Origin: Escherichia coli
GTDB taxonomy: Bacteria > Pseudomonadota > Gammaproteobacteria > Enterobacterales > Enterobacteriaceae
Direction: 5' to 3' (one strand)
Assembly: GCF_044324875.1 (NCBI RefSeq)
Contig: NZ_CP172185.1
Length of the DNA stretch: 64,000 nt
Shown here: positions 989 to 38,227 of the stretch, piece by piece
Position numbering within the stretch: position 1 is the stretch's first letter
How the letters are laid out: each line of letters starts with the position of its first letter
Program-made: the position numbers and the translations under genes
Notes under the pieces: model-generated
Told to the model about the DNA's origin: nothing
Database searches by the model: none
Seen by the model: the letters and a program-made list of their open reading frames with translations, nothing else

Positions 989-2101
989 TTATCCATTATT
1001 AATCACCTTATACAACGGGAGCATCGCCGCGCCGCATGACGCACTCTGTGCTCCCATCGAAGAGGCAGCTAACTTCACTCTGGGGCGGTTGGGATCGAGG
1101 CAGGCTTCCATCAGTTGATTCAGTTCCTGCACCAGACGACTGATAATCGGTTTCGGCATCGCGCCACCGAGTACGATGATTTGCGGGTCTACCCACTGCA
1201 CACAGCTGAAGAGCGTCTGCTCCACCTGGCCACGACAGCGTTCAAACCAGCTTTCCAGCAGTGGGTGCTGCCCGGCTATCAGCTCCGGTAGCTTAGTTTC
1301 ACTGAATCCTTCACGCTCCAGTGTGGCAAGCAAATCCTTATACGACGGGCGCGGTGTACCGGATGGAAACGCCATCCCGACTTCACCGGCATTGCAGAAC
1401 CCGCCGCGTAGCATTTTATTCCCGGAGATAATACCCGCGCCGATACCGTAGCCAAGGTCGATAAAGGTTAGATCGCTGTACGCATTCCATTTGCCGCTGT
1501 ACAGTTCACCTACCGCCGAGGCGTTGGCATTATTTTCCACCCACGTCGGCCACGGCAGGTTGTCGGCAAACGCCTGCTGGAGATCTACCTCACGCCAGCT
1601 CTCCAGCCACGGTACGCTGTGGCGCTTGCGACCATCCGCTTTCAGAAATCCGGGCACTGCATAGCCAATGCCGAGAATACGTGCGTGCTGGAGCTGGCGC
1701 TTTTTCAGCATTTTCTCCACCAAGGTTTTGATCTGCGCGAGAGAGGCCTCCAGTGGCTGATTCTCCTGATGTGCTTCGCAAAGCGACAGCAGCTGGCGAC
1801 CACTGAGATCGACCACCGTCATATCGATAAAACCGGGACTGAACGACAACCCGATAGCACAACCGCCGCCGGGGTTAAGGCGCAACGGCAGCGACGGCTG
1901 GCCGCGCTGCCCGGTATTGCGCTCCCCTTCCACCACCAGGCCGGAGAACATCAGCTCTCGGCACTGTTGGGTGATCGCCCCCGCCGTCAGTCCCGACAGC
2001 CGTGCCAGTTCAGCCCGCGTCACCGGGGCGTGGAGACGGATCAGTTCCAGCAGCAGGCGCTGCGAACCACGTAGTTCAAGGCGTTCAGAGTGGGCGTTCA
2101 T
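989..2101 (-). CDS. ROK-family transcriptional regulator (NagC/Mlc-like)
   Basis: 370-aa ORF, ATG at 2099-2101; N-terminal HTH (VTRAELARLSGLTAGAITQQCRELMFSGLV) followed by glycine-rich sugar-kinase-like ROK fold (GIGYAVPG, DLGYGIGAGII). Confidence 0.8.
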   Translation of the reverse strand: MNAHSERLELRGSQRLLLELIRLHAPVTRAELARLSGLTAGAITQQCRELMFSGLVVEGERNTGQRGQPSLPLRLNPGGGCAIGLSFSPGFIDMTVVDLSGRQLLSLCEAHQENQPLEASLAQIKTLVEKMLKKRQLQHARILGIGYAVPGFLKADGRKRHSVPWLESWREVDLQQAFADNLPWPTWVENNANASAVGELYSGKWNAYSDLTFIDLGYGIGAGIISGNKMLRGGFCNAGEVGMAFPSGTPRPSYKDLLATLEREGFSETKLPELIAGQHPLLESWFERCRGQVEQTLFSCVQWVDPQIIVLGGAMPKPIISRLVQELNQLMEACLDPNRPRVKLAASSMGAQSASCGAAMLPLYKVINNG

Positions 2102-2116
2102 GGTGTCCTTATTTTT

Positions 2117-2947
2117 CTAGTTCCAGCGCAGGCCTGCTTCTTCAATCAGTCCCTGCAAATACGGAATATCATCGTGGCTGAGCATATCAATCAGCCCCGC
2201 CTGCATCCAGCCGATAATCACCGGACGACTGTCACAGCCGAATTTATAGTCGTACTGCTCCAGCGGCGTCATGCCGTTTTTCATTTCATGCAGATACATC
2301 CGCACGCCCAGTCCGGCATTTTTGTAGGCCCGCAGGTCGTCGATATGGGCGAACTCGAACTCAAAGCAGACGCATCCGGCATTGGACTGCTGTACCGCCG
2401 CAAGCTGGTTATTGTAGCGCTCCAGCGTCACCACCTGTAACGCCAGTTGCGGGATTTGCGCCTTCACCCGGTTGATCAGCACATGGTTGAAGCCCAGCAA
2501 CTGGATATGGCCGAGGGCATCCAGATGCTCATGCAGCAGTGCGACCAGCGCCGCCACAAACTCGTCATGGCGGTTGCGCTGTTTGACCTCAACAATCAGC
2601 CCCATGCTGTTTTCCACCGCCCAGCGCAGCACGTCCGCCAGCAAGGGGATGCGCGTTCCGGCAAACGACGGATGGTATTTCACGCCAAAGTCGCACGCCA
2701 GCAGCTGCGGGTACGTCATCTGCTCCACAAATCCGTGTCCGGTGGATACCCGGTCGATACGGTGATCGTGCGTGACCACCAGTTGGTTATCCGCCGTCAG
2801 GTGGATATCGATTTCAATACAGTGGGTTCCCGCCAGGCGGGCGGCTTCAAAGGCCGGGAATGTGTTCTCCGGCGCGCAGCTGGAATAACCTCGGTGGCTG
2901 TTGGCCAGCACGATCCCCTCTGCCGCCCGGTGAAAGTTAAACGCCAT
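2117..2947 (-). CDS. Glycerophosphodiester phosphodiesterase family protein
   Basis: 276-aa ORF; GDPD hallmarks HRG...ENT (LANSHRGYSSCAPENT) and E-x-D-x-H (IEIDIHLTADNQLVVTHD); 15 bp upstream of the ROK gene on the same strand. Confidence 0.8.
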   Translation of the reverse strand: MAFNFHRAAEGIVLANSHRGYSSCAPENTFPAFEAARLAGTHCIEIDIHLTADNQLVVTHDHRIDRVSTGHGFVEQMTYPQLLACDFGVKYHPSFAGTRIPLLADVLRWAVENSMGLIVEVKQRNRHDEFVAALVALLHEHLDALGHIQLLGFNHVLINRVKAQIPQLALQVVTLERYNNQLAAVQQSNAGCVCFEFEFAHIDDLRAYKNAGLGVRMYLHEMKNGMTPLEQYDYKFGCDSRPVIIGWMQAGLIDMLSHDDIPYLQGLIEEAGLRWN

Positions 2948-3162
2948 CTTCTTTTCCTCTCGAATGTAAGATGGTAATTAACTTTACTACTTAAATTTAA
3001 ATGTGAAAGATGTTTTTGTTATTTTATGGTTAATCCATTGTTTTATATGCTTTTAATTTGATATTTAGATCATTTTTTAGCTTTAAGGATCTGTGTCACA
3101 TAAATTTAATGTTTAGTATGTAAATTTAATAATCATCTTTTTAACCGATAGAAGAGAGACTC

Positions 3163-4230
3163 ATGTCAAAACTGGTTCTGGAACAGGTGACCAAAACCTT
3201 CGGCGAATTCTATGCCGCCAGGGAAATCTCGTTCTGCGCCGAAGAGGGGGAGTTCGTGACCCTGCTTGGGCCGAGCGGCTGCGGTAAAACCACCCTGCTG
3301 AAAATGATCGGCGGTTTTCACCAGCCGGACAGCGGACGCATTCTGATTGGCGATAAAACGGTCAACGCCCTGCCGCCAGAAAAGCGCAATACCGCCATGT
3401 GTTTCCAGTCCTATGCGCTGTTTCCGCACCTCAACGTGGCACACAACATCTGCTTCGGCCTGAAGCAGAAAAAAGTCGCTATCAGTGAACAGCAGGCCCG
3501 GCTGGCGGAGGCGCTGAAGCAGGTGGGGCTGGAGAGCCAGCGCCTGAAAATGCCCGCCCAGCTCTCCGGCGGCCAGCAGCAGCGCGTGGCGCTGGCGCGG
3601 GCGATGATCACCCGCCCGGACGTGATCCTGTTCGACGAACCGCTCTCCAACCTTGATGCCAAGCTGCGCGAAAGCGTGCGTTTTGAAATCAAGGAACTCC
3701 AGCGGCAGTATCAGCTCACCTCGATCTACGTCACACACGACCAGGCGGAAGCGCTGGCGATGTCGGATAAAATTGTGGTGCTGAACGCCGGTAATGTTGA
3801 GCAAATAGGCAAACCGGAAGAGATTTACTACCGTCCGGCCAACCGCTTTGTGGCCGACTTTATCGGCGCGGCCAATATCGACACCGCGCAGGTCACGCCC
3901 TCAGAGCAGCCGGGCTATTACCGGGTACGCTGTGCCCTCGGCGAGTTTTATGTGCATTCCGTACAGCCGCCACGCACAGAGCACTGCTATATCTGCTGGC
4001 GACCGGAAGATGCGCAGTATGTCAGCCAGCCTCAGGCAGGCAACAACCACTTCTCCCTGACGCTCGACAAAATGGCCTTTATGGGCAACCTCACCGAAGC
4101 CTGGGGCCACAACGACAGCGGGTTATCGGTCCGCTTACATCTAATTAAAAAGCCGCCCGTCGCCCCCGGCGAGAGTGCCTGCTTCCGTCTGGCGGAAAAC
4201 GCCATCCATTTTCTGGAGCCGGTATCATGA
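3163..4230 (+). CDS. ABC transporter ATP-binding protein (PotA/MalK/UgpC-like)
   Basis: Walker [10 protein letters not shown], signature [14 protein letters not shown], Walker [13 protein letters not shown]-terminal regulatory-type domain; ATG 3163; stop overlaps next start (ATGA at 4227). Confidence 0.9.
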
Positions 4231-5093
4231 AAAACTGGCGCAATGATGCGGTCGCCTGGCTGCTGATGCTCAGCGGGCTGGGCACGATCCTACTACTGAT
4301 GGGATCGACGTTTTATGTGGTGATCGTCCAGAGCCTGGGCTGGTTCAACATCGAAGGCGACAGCAATTTCTCGCTGGAATACTGGCGCAATATGTTGCAG
4401 GACGAAGTGTTGCAAAGCGCCCTGTTCTACTCAGTGAAAGTGTCACTGCTGGGGTCGTTCGGCTCGGTGATTTTCGCCTATCCGCTGGCGCTGTGGCTGC
4501 GTAAACCGATGGCCTATAAAGAGGGCATTATCGCGGTGCTGCGTGCGCCGATGTTTATCCCCGGTCTGGTGGCGGCGTTTCTGTTCGTCAATATCGTCGC
4601 TTATCACGGCATTATCAACGAACTGCTGCTGGCGCTGGGGATTATCAGCGAGCCGCTGCGGATGCAGAACGATGACTTCGGCTGGGGCGTGGTTATCCTG
4701 CAAATCTGGAAAAACCTGCCCTTCGCCCTGATCCTCGTCGGCGGCGCAGTCAACGCCATCCGTAACGACGTGCTGGACGCCGCCAGCAATCTCGGTGCCA
4801 GCCGCTGGCGCAGTTTTACCGGCGTGGTGGTGCCGCTGACGCTGCCCGCCGTGCAGGTGACGCTGATTCTGGTATTTATCGGCGCGCTGGGCGACTTCGC
4901 CTTCTTCTCGGTGGCCGGGCCACGCAACACCTACTCGCTGGCGCGGCTGATGCAGGCCACCGCCATGGAGTACGGCGAGTGGAATAACGCGGCGGTGATT
5001 GCGGTGATCATTATGGTCACGGCGGCCATCTGCACGTTGCTGATTGCCACACTGATTACCCCGTTCGCCACCCGCAAAGGAGAGGTCAAATGA
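4227..5093 (+). CDS. ABC transporter permease subunit 1
   Basis: 288-aa hydrophobic multi-TM protein translationally coupled to the ATPase; stop overlaps start of the next permease. Confidence 0.85.
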   Translation: MKNWRNDAVAWLLMLSGLGTILLLMGSTFYVVIVQSLGWFNIEGDSNFSLEYWRNMLQDEVLQSALFYSVKVSLLGSFGSVIFAYPLALWLRKPMAYKEGIIAVLRAPMFIPGLVAAFLFVNIVAYHGIINELLLALGIISEPLRMQNDDFGWGVVILQIWKNLPFALILVGGAVNAIRNDVLDAASNLGASRWRSFTGVVVPLTLPAVQVTLILVFIGALGDFAFFSVAGPRNTYSLARLMQATAMEYGEWNNAAVIAVIIMVTAAICTLLIATLITPFATRKGEVK

Positions 5094-5146
5094 GCCACAC
5101 TGATTACCCCGTTCGCCACCCGCAAAGGAGAGGTCAAATGAGCCAC
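5051..5146. repeat. Perfect 48-bp tandem duplication (2 copies) spanning the permease1 stop / permease2 start
   Basis: actgattaccccgttcgccacccgcaaaggagaggtcaaatgagccac occurs at 5051-5098 and again at 5099-5146; read directly. Confidence 0.9.
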
Positions 5147-5974
5147 ACTGCCAACGGTTGCCGGGTGGTGACGATTTCGCTGATCTTCTTCGTGGTCGCT
5201 AATCTGATCTGGCTGGGCATGCCGTTCGGCATGGCGATCCTCTGGTCGCTGGTTGACCCGGCCCATCCGTGGAGCTACCCGGATATCTTCCCGCCCGTGC
5301 TGTCGTTCAGCCGCTGGCTGCTGGTATGGGAAAAGACTTCGCTTTCCGAGGCGCTGTTCAACAGCTACACCATTGCGCCTGCGGTAGCGGTCGCCAGCCT
5401 GCTGCTGTCGCTACCCACCGCGTATGCCTTCGGGCGCATGACCTTTCGCGGTAAGGCGGTGGCGGAGATGCTGACGCTGATCCCGCTGGTGATGCCGGGG
5501 ATGCTGATCGGGATTTTTTTCAGCGCCATGCTGATCAACCTCAATATCGACAACGCGTTTATCAGCATTGTTATCGGCCATACGGTACTGACGCTGCCCT
5601 ATTCGATCCGCATTATGTCTGCGGGGTTTAAGTCGGTGCCGCAGGATCTGATCGACGCCAGCCGCGACCTGGGCTCCGGCGCGTGGGACACCTTCTGCAA
5701 TGCCTATCTGCCGCTGCTGAAACCGAGCTTCCTGGCGGCGCTGATTTTTTGTCTGGTGCGAAGCCTGGAAGAGTTCAGCATCTCATACGTGCTGGGCGCG
5801 CCGGACTTTATCACCGTTCCGACCATTCTTTACTCTTTCCTTGGCTACTCCTTCGTCCGCCCGGATGCGGCGGTGGTGTCGATGATTCTGGTGATCCCCA
5901 ATGTCATCCTGATGGTCATCATTGAGAAGTTGCTGAAGGGGAACTATCTGTCGCAATCCACGGGAAAAGCCTGA
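5090..5974 (+). CDS. ABC transporter permease subunit 2 (N-terminus affected by 48-bp duplication; alternative start 5138)
   Basis: 294-aa hydrophobic ORF; first ATG at 5090 lies in duplication copy 1 and adds 16 residues (MSHTDYPVRHPQRRGQ) before the second MSHT at 5138. Confidence 0.8.
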   Translation: MSHTDYPVRHPQRRGQMSHTANGCRVVTISLIFFVVANLIWLGMPFGMAILWSLVDPAHPWSYPDIFPPVLSFSRWLLVWEKTSLSEALFNSYTIAPAVAVASLLLSLPTAYAFGRMTFRGKAVAEMLTLIPLVMPGMLIGIFFSAMLINLNIDNAFISIVIGHTVLTLPYSIRIMSAGFKSVPQDLIDASRDLGSGAWDTFCNAYLPLLKPSFLAALIFCLVRSLEEFSISYVLGAPDFITVPTILYSFLGYSFVRPDAAVVSMILVIPNVILMVIIEKLLKGNYLSQSTGKA

Positions 5975-5995
5975 CCTTTTACAGGAGATAATGTG

Positions 5996-7072
5996 ATGAA
6001 AAAAACAGTGATGATTCTGGCGGGCGGCCTGCTGTGCAGCTCGCTGGCAACGGCGGCGGATAGCCCCGACCTGATTGCCCAAGCGAAAAAAGAGGGCAGC
6101 GTGACCTTTAACGTCTGGTACTTACAGCCGCAGTGGCGCAGCTTTGTGAAGGATTTTGAGCAGCAGTACGGTGTTAAGGTGCGCATCCCGGAAGGGAATA
6201 TCGACGGAAACGTGAACAAGTTGCTGGCAGAAGCGGGGAAAAAAAAAGGTAAAATAGATGTTATCGCCTTGTCTGTTGCGCAACTGCCAGTGGCAATGGG
6301 AGCGAAAGCGCTGGCGAAGGTGGACGATTTGCCGGGCTATGGCGACGCCATTCACCAGATTCAGAACGTTGACACCCAGGGTTATGCCGTGGCGTTCTGG
6401 GGCAACCAGACCGGATTTGCTTACGACCCGCAGCAGATGGGTGACCGGGCGCTGCCACAAACGCTGGAGCAGTTGCAGAGCTTTATCGACGCCAACCCGA
6501 AAAAGTTCGGCTATAACGACCCGAACAACGGCGGCGCTGGGGAAGCCTTTATCCAGCGCATCGTCACTACTCAGGGCGACACGTTTAACAGCGAAGCGGA
6601 GAGCGTTGACCCGGCAGTGGTGAAAAACTGGCAGAAAGGCTGGCAGTGGTTTGCCGCTAATAAGGACAAAATTACCCGCACGGCCTCCGGTGCTGATAGT
6701 CTGACACGCCTGAATGACGGCGAGCTGATGCTGACACCATCCTGGGAAGATCATCTTGTCGGACTACAAAAAACCGGGGCTATCAATTCGCGGCTGAAAT
6801 TTTACGTACCGGAGTTTGGCATGCCTGGCGGCGGTAACATCGCTGCCATTGCCGCCAACAGCCCACATCCGGCGGCATCACGCTTATTCCTCAACTGGCT
6901 GATTCAGCCTGAAACGCAACATGCACTGAGTAAAGTCTTCGGCTCCACGCCGATGAACAAACAGCTCCGTCCGGATCTGAATGAGATCCCGGAGCCCACG
7001 GTGGAGTTTTATGGCAAAGCGTACAGTACACAGCTCAAAAAAGATTTCGTTCGTGAGGTCATGATGCAGTAA
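5996..7072 (+). CDS. ABC transporter periplasmic substrate-binding protein (family-1 SBP)
   Basis: Signal peptide MKKTVMILAGGLLCSSLATAADS; about 358 aa; last gene of ATPase-permease-permease-SBP operon; track start 5993 is GTG, ATG at 5996. Confidence 0.85.
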   Translation: MKKTVMILAGGLLCSSLATAADSPDLIAQAKKEGSVTFNVWYLQPQWRSFVKDFEQQYGVKVRIPEGNIDGNVNKLLAEAGKKKGKIDVIALSVAQLPVAMGAKALAKVDDLPGYGDAIHQIQNVDTQGYAVAFWGNQTGFAYDPQQMGDRALPQTLEQLQSFIDANPKKFGYNDPNNGGAGEAFIQRIVTTQGDTFNSEAESVDPAVVKNWQKGWQWFAANKDKITRTASGADSLTRLNDGELMLTPSWEDHLVGLQKTGAINSRLKFYVPEFGMPGGGNIAAIAANSPHPAASRLFLNWLIQPETQHALSKVFGSTPMNKQLRPDLNEIPEPTVEFYGKAYSTQLKKDFVREVMMQ

Positions 7073-7167
7073 GCTTCATTTCGCGCACAGCCATCCCCCT
7101 GAAATCTGGCTGACTGTTATTTCGCAACAGTTATTGAGTAAATCTTTAACCTGTTAACAGAGGGTTT

Positions 7168-7692
7168 ATGAAACGTAAACTTATTGCCTTTGTGATTCTG
7201 GCTACATCATCCTGTGGATATGCAGCCACCAAAGATGTAACAATGAATCTTGTTGATAGTGACGGAAAAGAGCGAAATATTGGTAAAATAACCATCCAGA
7301 AGACACCCTACGGGCTGCTGTTCACCCCTGATCTTCACTCCTTACCCGCCGGCATTCATGGTTTTCATGTACATGAAAACGCAAGTTGTGCTCCTGCCCT
7401 GAAAGATGGAAAAACTGTCGCTGCTTTATCTGCAGGTGGTCACTTTGACCCGGAAAAAACAGGGAAGCATCTCGGTCCATGGTCTCCTGATGGCCACCTG
7501 GGTGATCTCCCTGCGCTTTATGTCACTCATGACGGAAAAGCAACCTACCCGGTGCTTGCGCCAAGACTATCTGAATTAAAGGAGCTCGATGGCCGTTCGC
7601 TAATGCTCCACGCAGGAGGTGATAATCATGATGACCATCCTGAACCTCTAGGTGGCGGTGGTGCAAGAATTGCCTGTGGTATCATCCCATAA
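7168..7692 (+). CDS. sodC: Periplasmic Cu,Zn superoxide dismutase (SodC-family paralog, diverged from the K-12-type SodC as I recall it)
   Basis: Signal peptide plus Cu/Zn-SOD motifs [34 protein letters not shown] 7168. Confidence 0.85.
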
Positions 7693-7700
7693 TCAATCAG

Positions 7701-7721
7701 GTAAGGGATATCCTCCCTTAC
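7701..7721 (+). terminator. Stem-loop immediately after sodC stop (weak terminator candidate, no clear T-tract)
   Basis: gtaaggga / tcccttac 8-bp stem, 5-nt loop. Confidence 0.35.
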
Positions 7722-7820
7722 CCTTAATCTTCCCTGGCTGCATGTGCATATCTTTCAGTTACTGTGAGATACCTGTATTACGGTGTCTTTTTAGCTCACA
7801 GAAATATCAGACAGCCCGTT

Positions 7821-8045
7821 TCAGTGTTTTATTACCTTAATCTTTTTACGGCATTCTTCAGCTCTTGCGCATGCTATTTTTTCACCTGTTTCATAACATT
7901 GCTGGCAGCCTAATCCAAATTTCATCGCCATATCATAACCTTCCCGAAAACCTCGGAACCACGCGTTACGAAGGTATTCATCATATTCCCCGCAGTCAAT
8001 AATAACCATTTTATTTTCATGGGATTTTCCGGTATTCTCACTCAT
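7821..8045 (-). CDS. Small Cys-rich hypothetical protein (74 aa)
   Basis: ATG at 8043-8045 preceded by GAGG; MSENTGKSHENKMVIIDCGEYDEYLRNAWFRGF...CQQCYETGEKIACARAEEC with paired Cys; no family recognised. Confidence 0.35.
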   Translation of the reverse strand: MSENTGKSHENKMVIIDCGEYDEYLRNAWFRGFREGYDMAMKFGLGCQQCYETGEKIACARAEECRKKIKVIKH

Positions 8046-8400
8046 ATTCGATACCTCAATGCTTACAACAGAAAAGTATACTTTTACGAAGTTCGCCTTT
8101 GCAGGAGTATATAAAGTTATCACTGGATGCAAGAGCCGGAAATCATGTATATCAGGATCAACTTTGTAATTCAATAACATATTATCCAGTGAAAAAGTAA
8201 GTATATTTAAGCTGGGGAAGGAGAAGGGGGACTTGATTTGATATTTTCATCAATAATATTATTTTTCCTCCTCCATTATTCATTCAGACCTGGTTCCGGG
8301 CGTAATTCCTAGACTGGCCCCCTGAATCTCCAGACAACCAGTATCACTTAAATAAGTGATAGTCTTAATACTAGTTTTTAGACTAGTCATTGGAGAACAG

Positions 8401-8766
8401 ATGATTGATGTCTTAGGGCCGGAGAAACGCAGACGGCGTACCACACAGGAAAAGATCGCAATTGTTCAGCAGAGCTTTGAACCGGGGATGACGGTCTCCC
8501 TCGTTGCCCGGCAACATGGTGTAGCAGCCAGCCAGTTATTTCTCTGGCGTAAGCAATACCAGGAAGGAAGTCTTACTGCTGTCGCCGCCGGAGAACAGGT
8601 TGTTCCTGCCTCTGAACTTGCTGCCGCCATGAAGCAGATTAAAGAACTCCAGCGCCTGCTCGGCAAGAAAACGATGGAAAATGAACTCCTCAAAGAAGCC
8701 GTTGAATATGGACGGGCAAAAAAGTGGATAGCGCACGCGCCCTTATTGCCCGGGGATGGGGAGTAA
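8401..8766 (+). CDS. insC: IS2 transposase OrfA (InsC)
   Basis: [56 protein letters not shown]; 121 aa. Confidence 0.9.
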
Positions 8767-9629
8767 GCTTAGTCAGCCGTTGTCTCCGGGTGTCGCGTGC
8801 GCAGTTGCACGTCATTCTCAGACGAACCGATGACTGGATGGATGGCCGCCGCAGTCGTCACACTGATGATACGGATGTGCTTCTCCGTATACACCATGTT
8901 ATCGGAGAGCTGCCAACGTATGGTTATCGTCGGGTATGGGCGCTGCTTCGCAGACAGGCAGAACTTGATGGTATGCCTGCGATCAATGCCAAACGTGTTT
9001 ACCGGATCATGCGCCAGAATGCGCTGTTGCTTGAGCGAAAACCTGCTGTACCGCCATCGAAACGGGCACATACAGGCAGAGTGGCTGTGAAAGAAAGTAA
9101 TCAGCGATGGTGCTCTGACGGGTTCGAGTTCCGCTGTGATAACGGAGAAAAACTGCGAGTCACGTTCGCGCTGGACTGCTGTGACCGTGAGGCACTGCAC
9201 TGGGCGGTCACTACGGGCGGCTTCAACAGTGAAACAGTACAGGACGTCATGCTGGGAGCGGTGGAACGCCGCTTCGGCAACGAGCTTCCGGCGTCTCCAG
9301 TAGAGTGGCTGACGGATAATGGTTCATGCTACCGGGCTAATGAAACACGGCAGTTTGCCCGGATGTTGGGGCTTGAACCGAAGAGCACGGCGGTGCGGAG
9401 TCCGGAGAGTAACGGCATAGCAGAGAGCTTCGTGAAAACGATAAAGCGTGACTACATCAGTGTCATGCCCAAACCAGACGGGTTAACGGCAGCAAAGAAC
9501 CTTGCAGAGGCGTTCGAGCATTATAACGAATGGCATCCGCATAGTGCACTGGGTTATCGCTCGCCACGGGAATATCTACGGCAGCAAGCCAGTAATGGGT
9601 TAAGTGATAACAGGTGTCTGGAAATATAG
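8724..9629 (+). CDS. insD: IS2 transposase OrfB (InsD), DDE catalytic domain
   Basis: 301-aa ORF overlapping insC; WCSDGFEF...HWAVTTGG...WLTDNGSCY...HSALGYRSP. Confidence 0.9.
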
Positions 9630-10149
9630 GGGCAAATCCAATTCCGATTTCTCTGTTGAAGCGATGCATTTATATTTAAATATTCACCTGTCATTGAATT
9701 TTATTTGAAATAGGAGAAAATCTCCTCCTGTACTACAGATAACCCGGAATGTTCCTCGAAAGAAAATTCTGGCGCAGAATTCACGCCCGGTTCTGTTCAA
9801 CATCATGCAGGATAACGATACCGAAACGTTAAACTCTGGCAATTCTCGTGTTATACACAGGCAGGAGTGATTACTACGGTAAGAATTGCTGAAAAGGGGA
9901 GAACACTGAAGGCCTTATTCGCGAAGAATAAAGGAGACATTTCATGTAAATTATTATCAGAGATAACCTTCTCCAGGCGCTTTTGTTCGCTTCCTGAATT
10001 GCTACCTGATACATATTTACGGGATGCCAGCCTGGTGACTATAACTCCGAAAAGACCGATTATTGTATTGCGTGCATCCGGCATGTTTACAATGTACGCT
10101 GGTATCTAACGGAGTCTGACACAGATGCACGCAGGTGTATATTTTAACG

Positions 10150-21252: not shown

Positions 21253-21414
21253 GATATTTCCCCTGAACCCACATCCCTTGTTATGTAGTGCCATAACCTC
21301 TGTCCAACGCTGATGCCGTTTTTGGCGGGTTTGCTGTTTAAGGCGTTCCGGACGACGGAGTGAACCGCCCCGGGAATCCTGGAGACTAAACTCCCTGAGA
21401 AAGAGGTAAACAGA

Positions 21415-21741
21415 ATGACTAAAAATACTCGTTTTTCCCCCGAAGTCCGTCAGAGGGCGATTCGTATGGTTCTGGAAAGTCAGGGCGAATATGACTCACA
21501 GTGGGCGGCAATTTGTTCCATTGCCCCAAAGATTGGCTGTACACCGGAGACTCTGCGTGTCTGGGTACGCCAGCATGAGCGGGATACCGGAGGCGGTGAT
21601 GGCGGGCTCACCACCGCTGAACGTCAGCGTCTGAAAGAGCTGGAACGTGAAAATCGTGAACTGCGCCGCAGTAACGATATCCTTCGCCAGGCTTCCGCTT
21701 ATTTTGCGAAGGCGGAGTTCGACCGCCTCTGGAAAAAGTGA
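21415..21741 (+). CDS. IS629-like transposase OrfA
   Basis: 108 aa, HTH plus leucine-zipper region ([29 protein letters not shown]). Confidence 0.85.
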
Positions 21742-22628
21742 TGCCACTGCTGGATAAGCTGCGTAAGCTGTACGGGGTCGGACCGGTATGCAGTGAACTA
21801 CATATTGCCCCGTCAACGTATTACCACTGTCAGCAACAGCGACATCATCCTTATAAACGCAGTGCCCGTGCGCAGCGCGATGACTGGCTGAAGAAAGAGA
21901 TACTGCGCGTATACGATGGGAATCATCAGGTATACGGTGTGCGTAAAGTCTGGCGTCAGTTGTTACGGGAAGGAATCAGGGTAGCCAGATGTACAGTGGC
22001 GCGCCTCATGGCGGTTATGGGACTTGCCGGTGTTCTCCGGGGTAAAAAGGTCCGCACTACCGTCAGCCGGAAAGCCGTTGCCGCAGGCGACCGCGTAAAC
22101 CGTCAGTTTGTGGCAGAACGTCCTGACCAGTTGTGGGTGGCTGATTTTACTTACGTCAGCACATGGGAGGGGGTCGTCTATGTGGCGTTCATCATTGATG
22201 TGTTTGCCGGATACATCGTGGGGTGGCGGGTCTCATCGTCTATGGAAACGACATTCGTGCTGGATGCTCTGGAGCAGGCGTTATGGGCCCGTCGACCGTC
22301 CGGCACAGTCCATCACAGTGATAAAGGTTCTCAGTATGTATCGCTGGCCTACACACAGCGGCTTAAGGAAGCCGGATTACTGGCATCAACAGGAAGTACT
22401 GGTGACTCGTATGACAACGCGATGGCGGAGAGCATCAATGGCCTTTACAAAGCGGAGGTAATACACCGTAAGAGCTGGAAAAACCGGACAGAAGTGGAGC
22501 TGGCCACACTCACGTGGGTGGACTGGTATAACAATCGACGATTGCTGGAAAGGCTGGGCCATATCCCACCGGCAGAAGCAGAAAAATCTTATTATGCTTC
22601 CATCGGAAACGATGATCTGGCAGCCTGA
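21738..22628 (+). CDS. IS629-like transposase OrfB (DDE integrase core)
   Basis: 296 aa overlapping orfA stop; [10 protein letters not shown]...HHSDKGSQY...[10 protein letters not shown]. Confidence 0.85.
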
Positions 22629-22670
22629 GTTCACAGATAAAACACTCTCCAGGAAACCCGGGGCGGTTCA

Positions 22671-36191: not shown

Positions 36192-36282
36192 TAGACTGGC
36201 CCCCTGAATCTCCAGACAACCAGTATCACTTAAATAAGTGATAGTCTTAATACTAGTTTTTAGACTAGTCATTGGAGAACAG

Positions 36283-36648
36283 ATGATTGATGTCTTAGGG
36301 CCGGAGAAACGCAGACGGCGTACCACACAGGAAAAGATCGCAATTGTTCAGCAGAGCTTTGAACCGGGGATGACGGTCTCCCTCGTTGCCCGGCAACATG
36401 GTGTAGCAGCCAGCCAGTTATTTCTCTGGCGTAAGCAATACCAGGAAGGAAGTCTTACTGCTGTCGCCGCCGGAGAACAGGTTGTTCCTGCCTCTGAACT
36501 TGCTGCCGCCATGAAGCAGATTAAAGAACTCCAGCGCCTGCTCGGCAAGAAAACGATGGAAAATGAACTCCTCAAAGAAGCCGTTGAATATGGACGGGCA
36601 AAAAAGTGGATAGCGCACGCGCCCTTATTGCCCGGGGATGGGGAGTAA
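36283..36648 (+). CDS. insC: IS2 transposase OrfA (InsC)
   Basis: Identical translation to 8401-8766. Confidence 0.9.
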
Positions 36649-37511
36649 GCTTAGTCAGCCGTTGTCTCCGGGTGTCGCGTGCGCAGTTGCACGTCATTCT
36701 CAGACGAACCGATGACTGGATGGATGGCCGCCGCAGTCGTCACACTGATGATACGGATGTGCTTCTCCGTATACACCATGTTATCGGAGAGCTGCCAACG
36801 TATGGTTATCGTCGGGTATGGGCGCTGCTTCGCAGACAGGCAGAACTTGATGGTATGCCTGCGATCAATGCCAAACGTGTTTACCGGATCATGCGCCAGA
36901 ATGCGCTGTTGCTTGAGCGAAAACCTGCTGTACCGCCATCGAAACGGGCACATACAGGCAGAGTGGCTGTGAAAGAAAGTAATCAGCGATGGTGCTCTGA
37001 CGGGTTCGAGTTCCGCTGTGATAACGGAGAAAAACTGCGAGTCACGTTCGCGCTGGACTGCTGTGACCGTGAGGCACTGCACTGGGCGGTCACTACGGGC
37101 GGCTTCAACAGTGAAACAGTACAGGACGTCATGCTGGGAGCGGTGGAACGCCGCTTCGGCAACGAGCTTCCGGCGTCTCCAGTAGAGTGGCTGACGGATA
37201 ATGGTTCATGCTACCGGGCTAATGAAACACGGCAGTTTGCCCGGATGTTGGGGCTTGAACCGAAGAGCACGGCGGTGCGGAGTCCGGAGAGTAACGGCAT
37301 AGCAGAGAGCTTCGTGAAAACGATAAAGCGTGACTACATCAGTGTCATGCCCAAACCAGACGGGTTAACGGCAGCAAAGAACCTTGCAGAGGCGTTCGAG
37401 CATTATAACGAATGGCATCCGCATAGTGCACTGGGTTATCGCTCGCCACGGGAATATCTACGGCAGCAAGCCAGTAATGGGTTAAGTGATAACAGGTGTC
37501 TGGAAATATAG
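36606..37511 (+). CDS. insD: IS2 transposase OrfB (InsD)
   Basis: Identical translation to 8724-9629. Confidence 0.9.
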
Positions 37512-38227
37512 GGGCAAATCCAATATGTGTAGAATTATCTATTTAAAAAGATATGTATATAACACTTAATAAAAACATGTGTATATAGTATCATACCGAC
37601 ATTCTCAACATCTTCAGACTTCCATACATACTGGGTGTTGATTTCTCACTTTTACAGCCAGCATGGAGTTTTCTGTCCTAAAAACAGAGCAGATTTACTC
37701 TGGAATTATTTTTCTGCCCCCGTATTTCAGGCCCCAGAAAAGACAATCCGAAGCAAACCGTTTGTCAGCCTCCATATCATCTTTTACCCCCGGAAAGTGA
37801 TCGCGTTTTACAACCAGAATGACAGCCATACTGATTATGTCGTCTCCCGGCCCCCTTCACATATAACATGCATGTCTGTCATTGCTTACTGCTCCACATG
37901 ACCGGATTTCACATACAGGATGCACATTCAGTGTTTTTATCGCCACTATAACAGACAGATTACTGTCGTCTTTACTCTTCAGATTGTTAATCTGACCACA
38001 AGAACAGCCGAACGGCAAAACGCCCTCCACAAGGGGCACATGAACCATAGTTGATAGCATGTTTTTCCTAATCAAGGAATAGTTCAGGAATATTTTATTG
38101 CATTAATAACTGGCGAATAATCGTTCTGTGAACACAAAATGCTTTTATTTGTAAATTTTATTGCATTGCACTCGTTTTATTGATATGGGGTTTAATAACA
38201 GATAACCCGGAAAGAAGGAGAAAACAG

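Follow-up and report, generated by a model that had tools for sequence, protein, structure and literature searches.

We describe a pair of convergent genes in Escherichia coli, one (sodC) encoding a copper/zinc superoxide dismutase (Cu/Zn SOD) and the other a protein of 74 amino acids, which lie together in a 64,000-nucleotide stretch of contig NZ_CP172185.1 (RefSeq assembly GCF_044324875.1), hereafter the window. The best explanation we can offer for the locus as a whole, and one that we regard as probable, though only modestly so, is that positions 7104-8211 form a horizontally acquired two-gene module of about 1.1 kb within a mosaic genomic island. The SodC protein itself, already annotated, is a commonplace representative of the mobile-element SodCs; the one novelty of the locus is the conserved orphan gene that partners it. 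The literature search found no paper mentioning either this sodC variant or the accession of the 74-residue protein. The features of the module are the following, in window positions.

7104-8211, no strand: two-gene module (sodC, the small open reading frame (ORF) and their control regions), the stretch in common with Klebsiella pneumoniae (DNA identity 85.5%)
7168-7692, plus strand: sodC, accessory paralogue of the mobile-element (SodC-F-like) clade, RefSeq WP_000823671.1 (profile searches, alignment, tree)
7168-7227, plus strand: predicted signal peptide of about 19-20 residues, lipobox-like T-S-S-C16 followed by G-Y-A/A (N-terminus alignment)
7699-7723, no strand: GC-rich hairpin, likely a bidirectional intrinsic terminator between the convergent genes (scan hits on both strands)
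7821-8045, minus strand: gene of the 74-residue orphan protein, RefSeq hypothetical protein WP_024210520.1 (homologues, substitution rates, AlphaFold2 (AF2) model)
8053-8057, minus strand: Shine-Dalgarno sequence GAGGT, separated by 7 nt from the start codon ATG of the small ORF (read from the sequence)
8146-8174, minus strand: putative sigma-70-like promoter of the small ORF, TTGAAT-17 nt-TATACA (read from the sequence)

The limits of the module were set with blastn and MAFFT against two K. pneumoniae contigs (L005 and L006). In strain APEC 102026 the left junction falls at the same position, 7104, with dptF as the upstream neighbour instead of the ATP-binding cassette (ABC) transporter operon; in E. 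coli, position 7104 is thus an edge of recombination or mobilisation. The module ends showed neither terminal repeats nor att-like sites, and an Rfam search of the spacer returned nothing.

An accessory sodC of the mobile-element clade

What kind of superoxide dismutase does the window encode? The ORF at 7168-7692 specifies a complete Cu/Zn SodC precursor of 174 amino acids, which matches the Pfam family Sod_Cu (PF00080; E=6e-32, 111.3 bits against a cutoff of 28.9), the NCBIfam SodC equivalog NF007628 over its full length (218.4 bits, cutoff 165) and the PHROG 'superoxide dismutase precursor' (3e-89). The copper ligands H67, H69, H92 and H148, the zinc ligands H92, H101, H110 and D113, the disulfide pair C74/C170 and the active-site R167 are all present, in line with the first-pass annotation of this DNA, which had seen all Cu/Zn-SOD motifs; the columns checked are invariant in an alignment of 24 SodCs, and H67, H69 and C74 are identical in the K-12 SodC. 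By these signatures the protein is a member of the Cu/Zn superoxide dismutase family with predicted enzymatic activity.

Its hydrophobic N-terminus aligns with the signal peptide of K-12 SodC, and the predicted location of the protein after export is the periplasm. TSSC16 occupies the same alignment column as the AASC or ASSC of the SodCs of phages and phage-plasmids. For the O157 enzymes SodC-F1 and SodC-F2, dual processing by signal peptidases I and II via the AASC lipobox was shown experimentally, and these proteins are partly membrane-bound (PMC2569942). By analogy, cleavage by either signal peptidase is possible for the window SodC, which, with lipidation presumed, may be partly lipid-anchored in the membrane.

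The gene is, on the strength of its distribution, location and composition, a horizontally acquired accessory paralogue and not the core orthologue. A K-12-type core sodC, counted at a threshold of at least 95% identity to K-12, is present in 5,425 of the 5,426 complete E. coli genomes at the ydhK-sodC-ydhF locus, while the window sodC lies elsewhere, in a genomic island, and its segment (6900-8300) occurs in 125 of those genomes (2.3%). Since the core copy is near-universal, the carriers have both genes. The two proteins belong to the same family with all catalytic residues in common and are nearly equal in length (174 amino acids against 173 for the core SodC, b1646), but share only 57% identity, and the core protein lacks the signal-peptide cysteine. 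Base composition differs as well: the module has a guanine-cytosine (GC) content of 42.6% against 54.7% in the adjacent solute-binding-protein gene, and GC at third codon positions (GC3) is 0.35 in the window sodC, 0.47 in the core sodC and 0.66 in the solute-binding-protein gene. That the window SodC might be the species' core SodC in a divergent lineage, as its passing of the NCBIfam equivalog model could suggest, is refuted for practical purposes by its rarity (125 genomes and plasmids only), its different neighbours, the low identity and a separate core copy that nearly all carriers must possess.

The closest relatives of the window SodC, at about 79-82% amino acid identity, are encoded by Stx2a-converting phages and by phage-plasmid-like replicons of ~90-125 kb, a group that includes SodC-F1 and SodC-F2 of O157:H7. 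In a neighbour-joining tree the window SodC, its Klebsiella counterpart and one further protein (P0011) form the sister group of this phage and phage-plasmid clade, and core SodC is remote. The likeness extends to the DNA, where the phage genes share a single cassette with the window, confined to 7160-7732 and made up of the Shine-Dalgarno sequence, sodC and the hairpin terminator, which is also kept in Klebsiella. Both groups have the lipobox-like cysteine in the signal peptide, and in both the gene adds to a core copy. The window copy differs in its setting, which is not between tail genes as in lambdoid prophages; it resides in an island with no phage genes nearby, its neighbours being the ABC-transporter operon (dptF in another strain), insertion sequence (IS) elements and a LysR regulator. 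It differs from the phage cassettes also in ~480 bp of additional conserved DNA, which encodes the 74-residue protein. The SodC-F1 and SodC-F2 enzymes, dimeric and protease-resistant, are expressed in log phase and anaerobically, and are regulated unlike the core enzyme (PMC2569942). Salmonella SodCI (Gifsy-2; 59.5% identity to the window SodC) and SodCIII (Fels-1; 60%) are likewise acquired periplasmic 'moron' Cu/Zn SODs in addition to a core SodC, but the E. coli phage clade is closer to the window SodC than they are, and their genes lie between tail genes. The first-pass annotation had proposed a horizontally acquired paralogue, substantially unlike the K-12 type and comparable to prophage-borne sodC genes, and had named phylogeny and base composition as checks; the proposal agrees with the tree, the composition and the distribution alike.

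Chickens are the source of most carrier genomes among the matches listed, and identical sodC copies are found on IncF plasmids of poultry E. coli and of E. albertii. Two of these are E. albertii pEA04.3 (L003) and E. coli pEC012-4 (L004), with the locus at ~8826-9749. The plasmid fragment begins at window position 6993 and includes 80 bp from the end of the solute-binding-protein gene of the chromosome. This shows transfer of the fragment from chromosome to plasmid.

Two palindromes of the form CTGTT...AACAG are situated 5' of sodC, at 7113-7131 (CTGTT-N7-AACAG) and 7151-7160 (CTGTTAACAG). The first of them is also kept upstream of sodC in Klebsiella and could be a candidate operator.

The orphan gene convergent to sodC

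The first-pass annotation had pointed to a convergent ORF of 74 codons with paired cysteines, a good Shine-Dalgarno sequence and no recognisable family, and each part of this description stands. The cysteines of the encoded protein are at positions 18, 47, 50, 59 and 65, and its motif can be written RNAWFRGFREGY...CQQC. The invariant residues include C47-x2-C50, C65 and H74, while C18 and C59 are variable; E. coli alleles vary only at residues 8-20, with C18Y a common variant. At least 1,000 contigs encode the E. coli protein in identical form, in every case under the name 'hypothetical protein'.

Homologues are few. The only close one outside E. coli is a K. pneumoniae protein (P0004) of 81% amino acid identity, whose gene is convergent to that of a 174-residue SodC and has a FecCD-type ABC transporter as its other neighbour. 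A metagenomic homologue of 75 residues (P0130), about 55-63% identical, came to light when 1.84 billion representative proteins were searched exhaustively with phmmer; its gene adjoins that of a SodC (P0020) 71% identical to the window SodC. Single-sequence and profile word-indexed searches of 5.8 billion protein clusters gave no lineage beyond these three, searches with conserved peptide patterns in 100,044 GTDB species-representative genomes and in IMG/VR gave no relatives, and tblastn found no copy in phages and truncated copies only in plasmids (those from poultry). A 382-residue repeat protein (P0131) that matched with E=7e-5 over 7 stretches was judged spurious, having the look of a low-complexity tandem-repeat translation.

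Could the ORF be no gene at all but a frame left open by accident in the AT-rich DNA that separates sodC from the IS element? It is short, it has no family, the gene callers disagree on its length (119 or 74 amino acids), and a scan for consensus promoters reported no canonical promoter for it. The candidate promoter listed above escaped that scan because the last base of its -10 element is A; its Klebsiella equivalent reads TTGAAT-17-TATAAA. The disagreement over length is settled by a 1-bp indel in Klebsiella that breaks the extended 119-residue frame, and the 74-residue form is therefore the conserved one. Against a chance frame stands its conservation: homologues are 74-75 residues long with the same start and stop positions in all three lineages, and Klebsiella keeps the Shine-Dalgarno sequence as GAGGTG. 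Between E. coli and Klebsiella the ratio of nonsynonymous to synonymous substitution rates (dN/dS) is 0.22 at a dS of 0.43, compared with a dS of 0.45 for sodC; the other five frames of the region give ratios near 1 or contain stops, and among the open frames an excess of third-position changes is seen in that of the small ORF only. In comparison with the metagenomic locus L009, the proportion of synonymous differences (pS) is saturated at 0.91 and that of nonsynonymous differences (pN) is 0.26, falling to 0.155 in residues 19-66. The confident fold prediction described below is a further argument, and an accidental ORF is, in sum, highly improbable. By these sequence comparisons the small ORF is shown to be a real, translated-looking gene under purifying selection.

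AF2 predicts a two-helix hairpin for the protein, with helices at residues 18-42 and 47-73 joined by an FGLG loop. The mean predicted local distance difference test score (pLDDT) is 78.6, with values of 87-96 over residues 21-70; this score was reached when the distant homologue was added to the alignment, the close homologues alone giving 46. Fold searches with the model retrieved generic helical hairpins only, and a sequence-profile search of the PDB retrieved nothing. The N-terminus (MSENTGKSHENK...) is hydrophilic, with neither a signal peptide nor a twin-arginine motif to be read from it, and the protein should be soluble, with a predicted location in the cytoplasm. Searches of Pfam, NCBIfam, PHROGs and PADLOC assigned it to no family above threshold. 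The nearest approach was a match of P0130 alone to the Pfam family DUF7574 (15.1 bits, E=0.023), which falls short of the family's gathering threshold (27 bits); its E. coli and Klebsiella counterparts have no match there.

All three known lineages of the small gene lie within 1 kb of this sodC lineage, and the gene is thus linked to it. No copy away from sodC was found in the 1.84 billion representative proteins, the 5.8 billion clusters, the 100,044 species genomes, IMG/VR, phages or plasmids. The arrangement is not uniform: in L009 the gene order is permuted and the two genes are divergent, with a fragment of an IS3-family transposase between them and katG beyond. The segment in question, 208-4348 of L009 (metagenome SRR33065492; L010 is the same), reads sodC (minus strand), the IS3-family fragment, the small-ORF homologue (plus strand) and katG (plus strand). 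The homologue there sits between two genes for the detoxification of reactive oxygen species.

Possible roles of the 74-residue protein

What could be the function of a small cytoplasmic protein encoded next to a periplasmic enzyme? By analogy with the SodC-F enzymes of O157 and with Salmonella SodCI, the acquired SodC would provide the cell with another enzyme in the periplasm, perhaps anchored in part to the membrane, for the removal of superoxide produced by the host. The 74-residue protein would be a cytoplasmic accessory factor of this oxidative-stress module, namely a small modulator with the invariant CxxC and Cys65 at its heart, working as a thiol switch or a metal sensor and probably dimeric, which would tune the expression or activity of the linked detoxification genes without touching SodC directly. 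We favour such a thiol-based accessory modulator weakly, as a tentative proposal.

A number of observations weigh against this proposal. DNA-level homology unites the three lineages, and the adjacency of the two genes may therefore be plain inheritance; there are effectively only two independent arrangements of the small ORF and sodC. In the IncF plasmids that E. coli and E. albertii carry, the stretch homologous to the window stops at 7916 or 7753, and beside the plasmid copies of this sodC the small ORF is accordingly reduced to positions 7821-7916 or missing altogether. The sodC cassettes of phages and phage-plasmids, restricted to the shared 7160-7732, have no intact small ORF, and the SodCs P0022 (Salmonella) and P0021 are without a small-ORF neighbour. 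From these phage and plasmid copies it follows that SodC does not need the small protein. In APEC 102026 the final codons of the small ORF have given way to an IS5, and such IS5-disrupted carriers are estimated at ~15% of carrier chromosomes by extrapolation from 6 of 40 sampled matches. One E. coli contig has the reverse condition, with sodC deleted and a truncated small ORF retained. Finally, the invariant cysteines lie on the same helix face as small-xxx-small residues and may be packing residues rather than ligands.

A plainer account fits these facts: the small ORF may be a real orphan cargo gene from the donor genome, carried on the same 1.1-kb fragment and functionally unrelated to sodC. 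This account is tentative and almost as likely as the modulator. It would attribute the adjacency to descent, which the DNA-level homology permits; it agrees with the maintenance of plasmid and phage sodC without the small ORF and with the toleration of IS5 and IS-mediated truncations, and neither a regulatory motif in common nor a family link came to light. What an unrelated passenger does not readily account for is purifying selection that persisted across a divergence saturating the synonymous sites, an adjacency to sodC that survived permutation of the gene order, placing the gene between sodC and katG, and its absence away from sodC in the very large collections searched.

A bolder form of the modulator proposal would make the 74-residue protein the founder of a new family of sodC-dependent accessory factors, a cytoplasmic CxxC thiol or metal switch that would accompany a mobile periplasmic SOD (and, in one lineage, katG too) and adjust its host's response to oxidative stress. 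Such a switch would be a mechanistic counterpart to the sodCI-dependent antivirulence effect of GrvA; we consider this whole combination unlikely. GrvA of Gifsy-2 is an antivirulence factor whose phenotype requires sodCI by an unexplained mechanism (review PMC7380047). It offers a precedent for a second mobile-element gene that depends on a co-resident acquired sodC, but the analogy is conceptual only. The 74-residue protein has no sequence similarity to the Gifsy-2 late region, and no small-ORF homologue was found in Gifsy-2.

Known metal sensors of comparable size offer no home for the protein. CsoR, RcnR and FrmR are small helical sensors in which a cysteine at the N-terminus of one helix and a cysteine or histidine near the C-terminus of a partner helix form an inter-subunit site. 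They have three helices, whereas the 74-residue protein has a predicted two, and membership of this family was rejected (hhalign probability of 0.1% against FrmR and RcnR; no match to PF02583). The protein was likewise rejected as an HMA/CopZ-type or periplasmic copper chaperone, being a predicted all-alpha hairpin, not a ferredoxin-like fold with MxCxxC, with no Pfam or NCBIfam match and no export signal.

The first-pass annotation had raised a metal-binding or chaperone role toward SodC; as a metal chaperone, the cysteine-rich micro-protein would load copper or zinc into the adjacent enzyme. The invariant CxxC, Cys65 and His74 and the strict adjacency to a metalloenzyme gene would fit this idea. 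The topology does not: SodC acquires its metals in the periplasm, to which it is exported by a Sec-type signal peptide, and direct metallation of it is unlikely because the 74-residue protein carries neither a signal peptide nor a twin-arginine motif. Its predicted all-alpha fold is not the beta-alpha-beta-beta-alpha-beta fold of HMA-type copper chaperones, Cys18 and Cys59 are variable, sodC exists on phages and plasmids without an intact partner gene, and closely related phage SodCs work without the 74-residue protein (PMC2569942). A metal chaperone is for these reasons very improbable.

The island, its IS elements and the significance of the module

One feature outside the module belongs to its immediate context.

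8310-9640, plus strand: complete IS2 of 1,331 bp, flanked by a 5-bp target-site duplication ATTCC (8305-8309 and 9641-9645)

The first-pass annotation had noted the position of the gene pair next to IS2. The element is where it was said to be, but strain 135 and APEC 102026 lack it at loci that are otherwise 99.9% identical, and its nearness to the module is therefore incidental; identical IS2 copies, annotated as IS3 family transposase, are found on many plasmids. As far as these comparisons tell, the IS2 at 8310 is a recent and unrelated insertion. It has a 100% identical companion in direct orientation at 36192-37522, and the two copies bracket ~26.5 kb of island DNA, potentially a composite-transposon or deletion-prone segment.

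Apart from IS insertions the window is collinear with strain 135, whose island contains ter genes, genes for an S6 autotransporter protease and an AbgT transporter, a ROK/GlpQ/ABC operon and numerous IS elements, with a distal end that is CP4-like. Two segments of the window, 21360-22671 and 23648-26288, are absent from the collinear strain 135 locus and are probably IS or insertion events. Upstream of sodC, 989-7072 encodes a ROK regulator, a glycerophosphodiester phosphodiesterase and a four-gene ABC transporter. Its GC content of 55-61% differs from that of E. coli and from that of the sodC module, which suggests a separate acquisition. The right flank of the island, 46300-52300, is core genome with glnQ, glnP, ybiO, rlmF and fiu; for these 6 kb the best identity among 5,421 complete E. 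coli genomes is 98.5%. In strain 135 the same island abuts fabI, and its chromosomal position thus differs between strains.

Extra mobile sodC genes are established fitness and virulence factors in Salmonella and O157. The sodC lineage of the window is found preferentially in E. coli and E. albertii associated with poultry, moves between chromosomal islands and IncF plasmids, and may aid survival in the avian host. If the 74-residue protein has no role in the enzyme's function or in the oxidative-stress response, the locus is an ordinary accessory sodC. If it does modulate either, it would be a new small regulator in a simple two-gene system.

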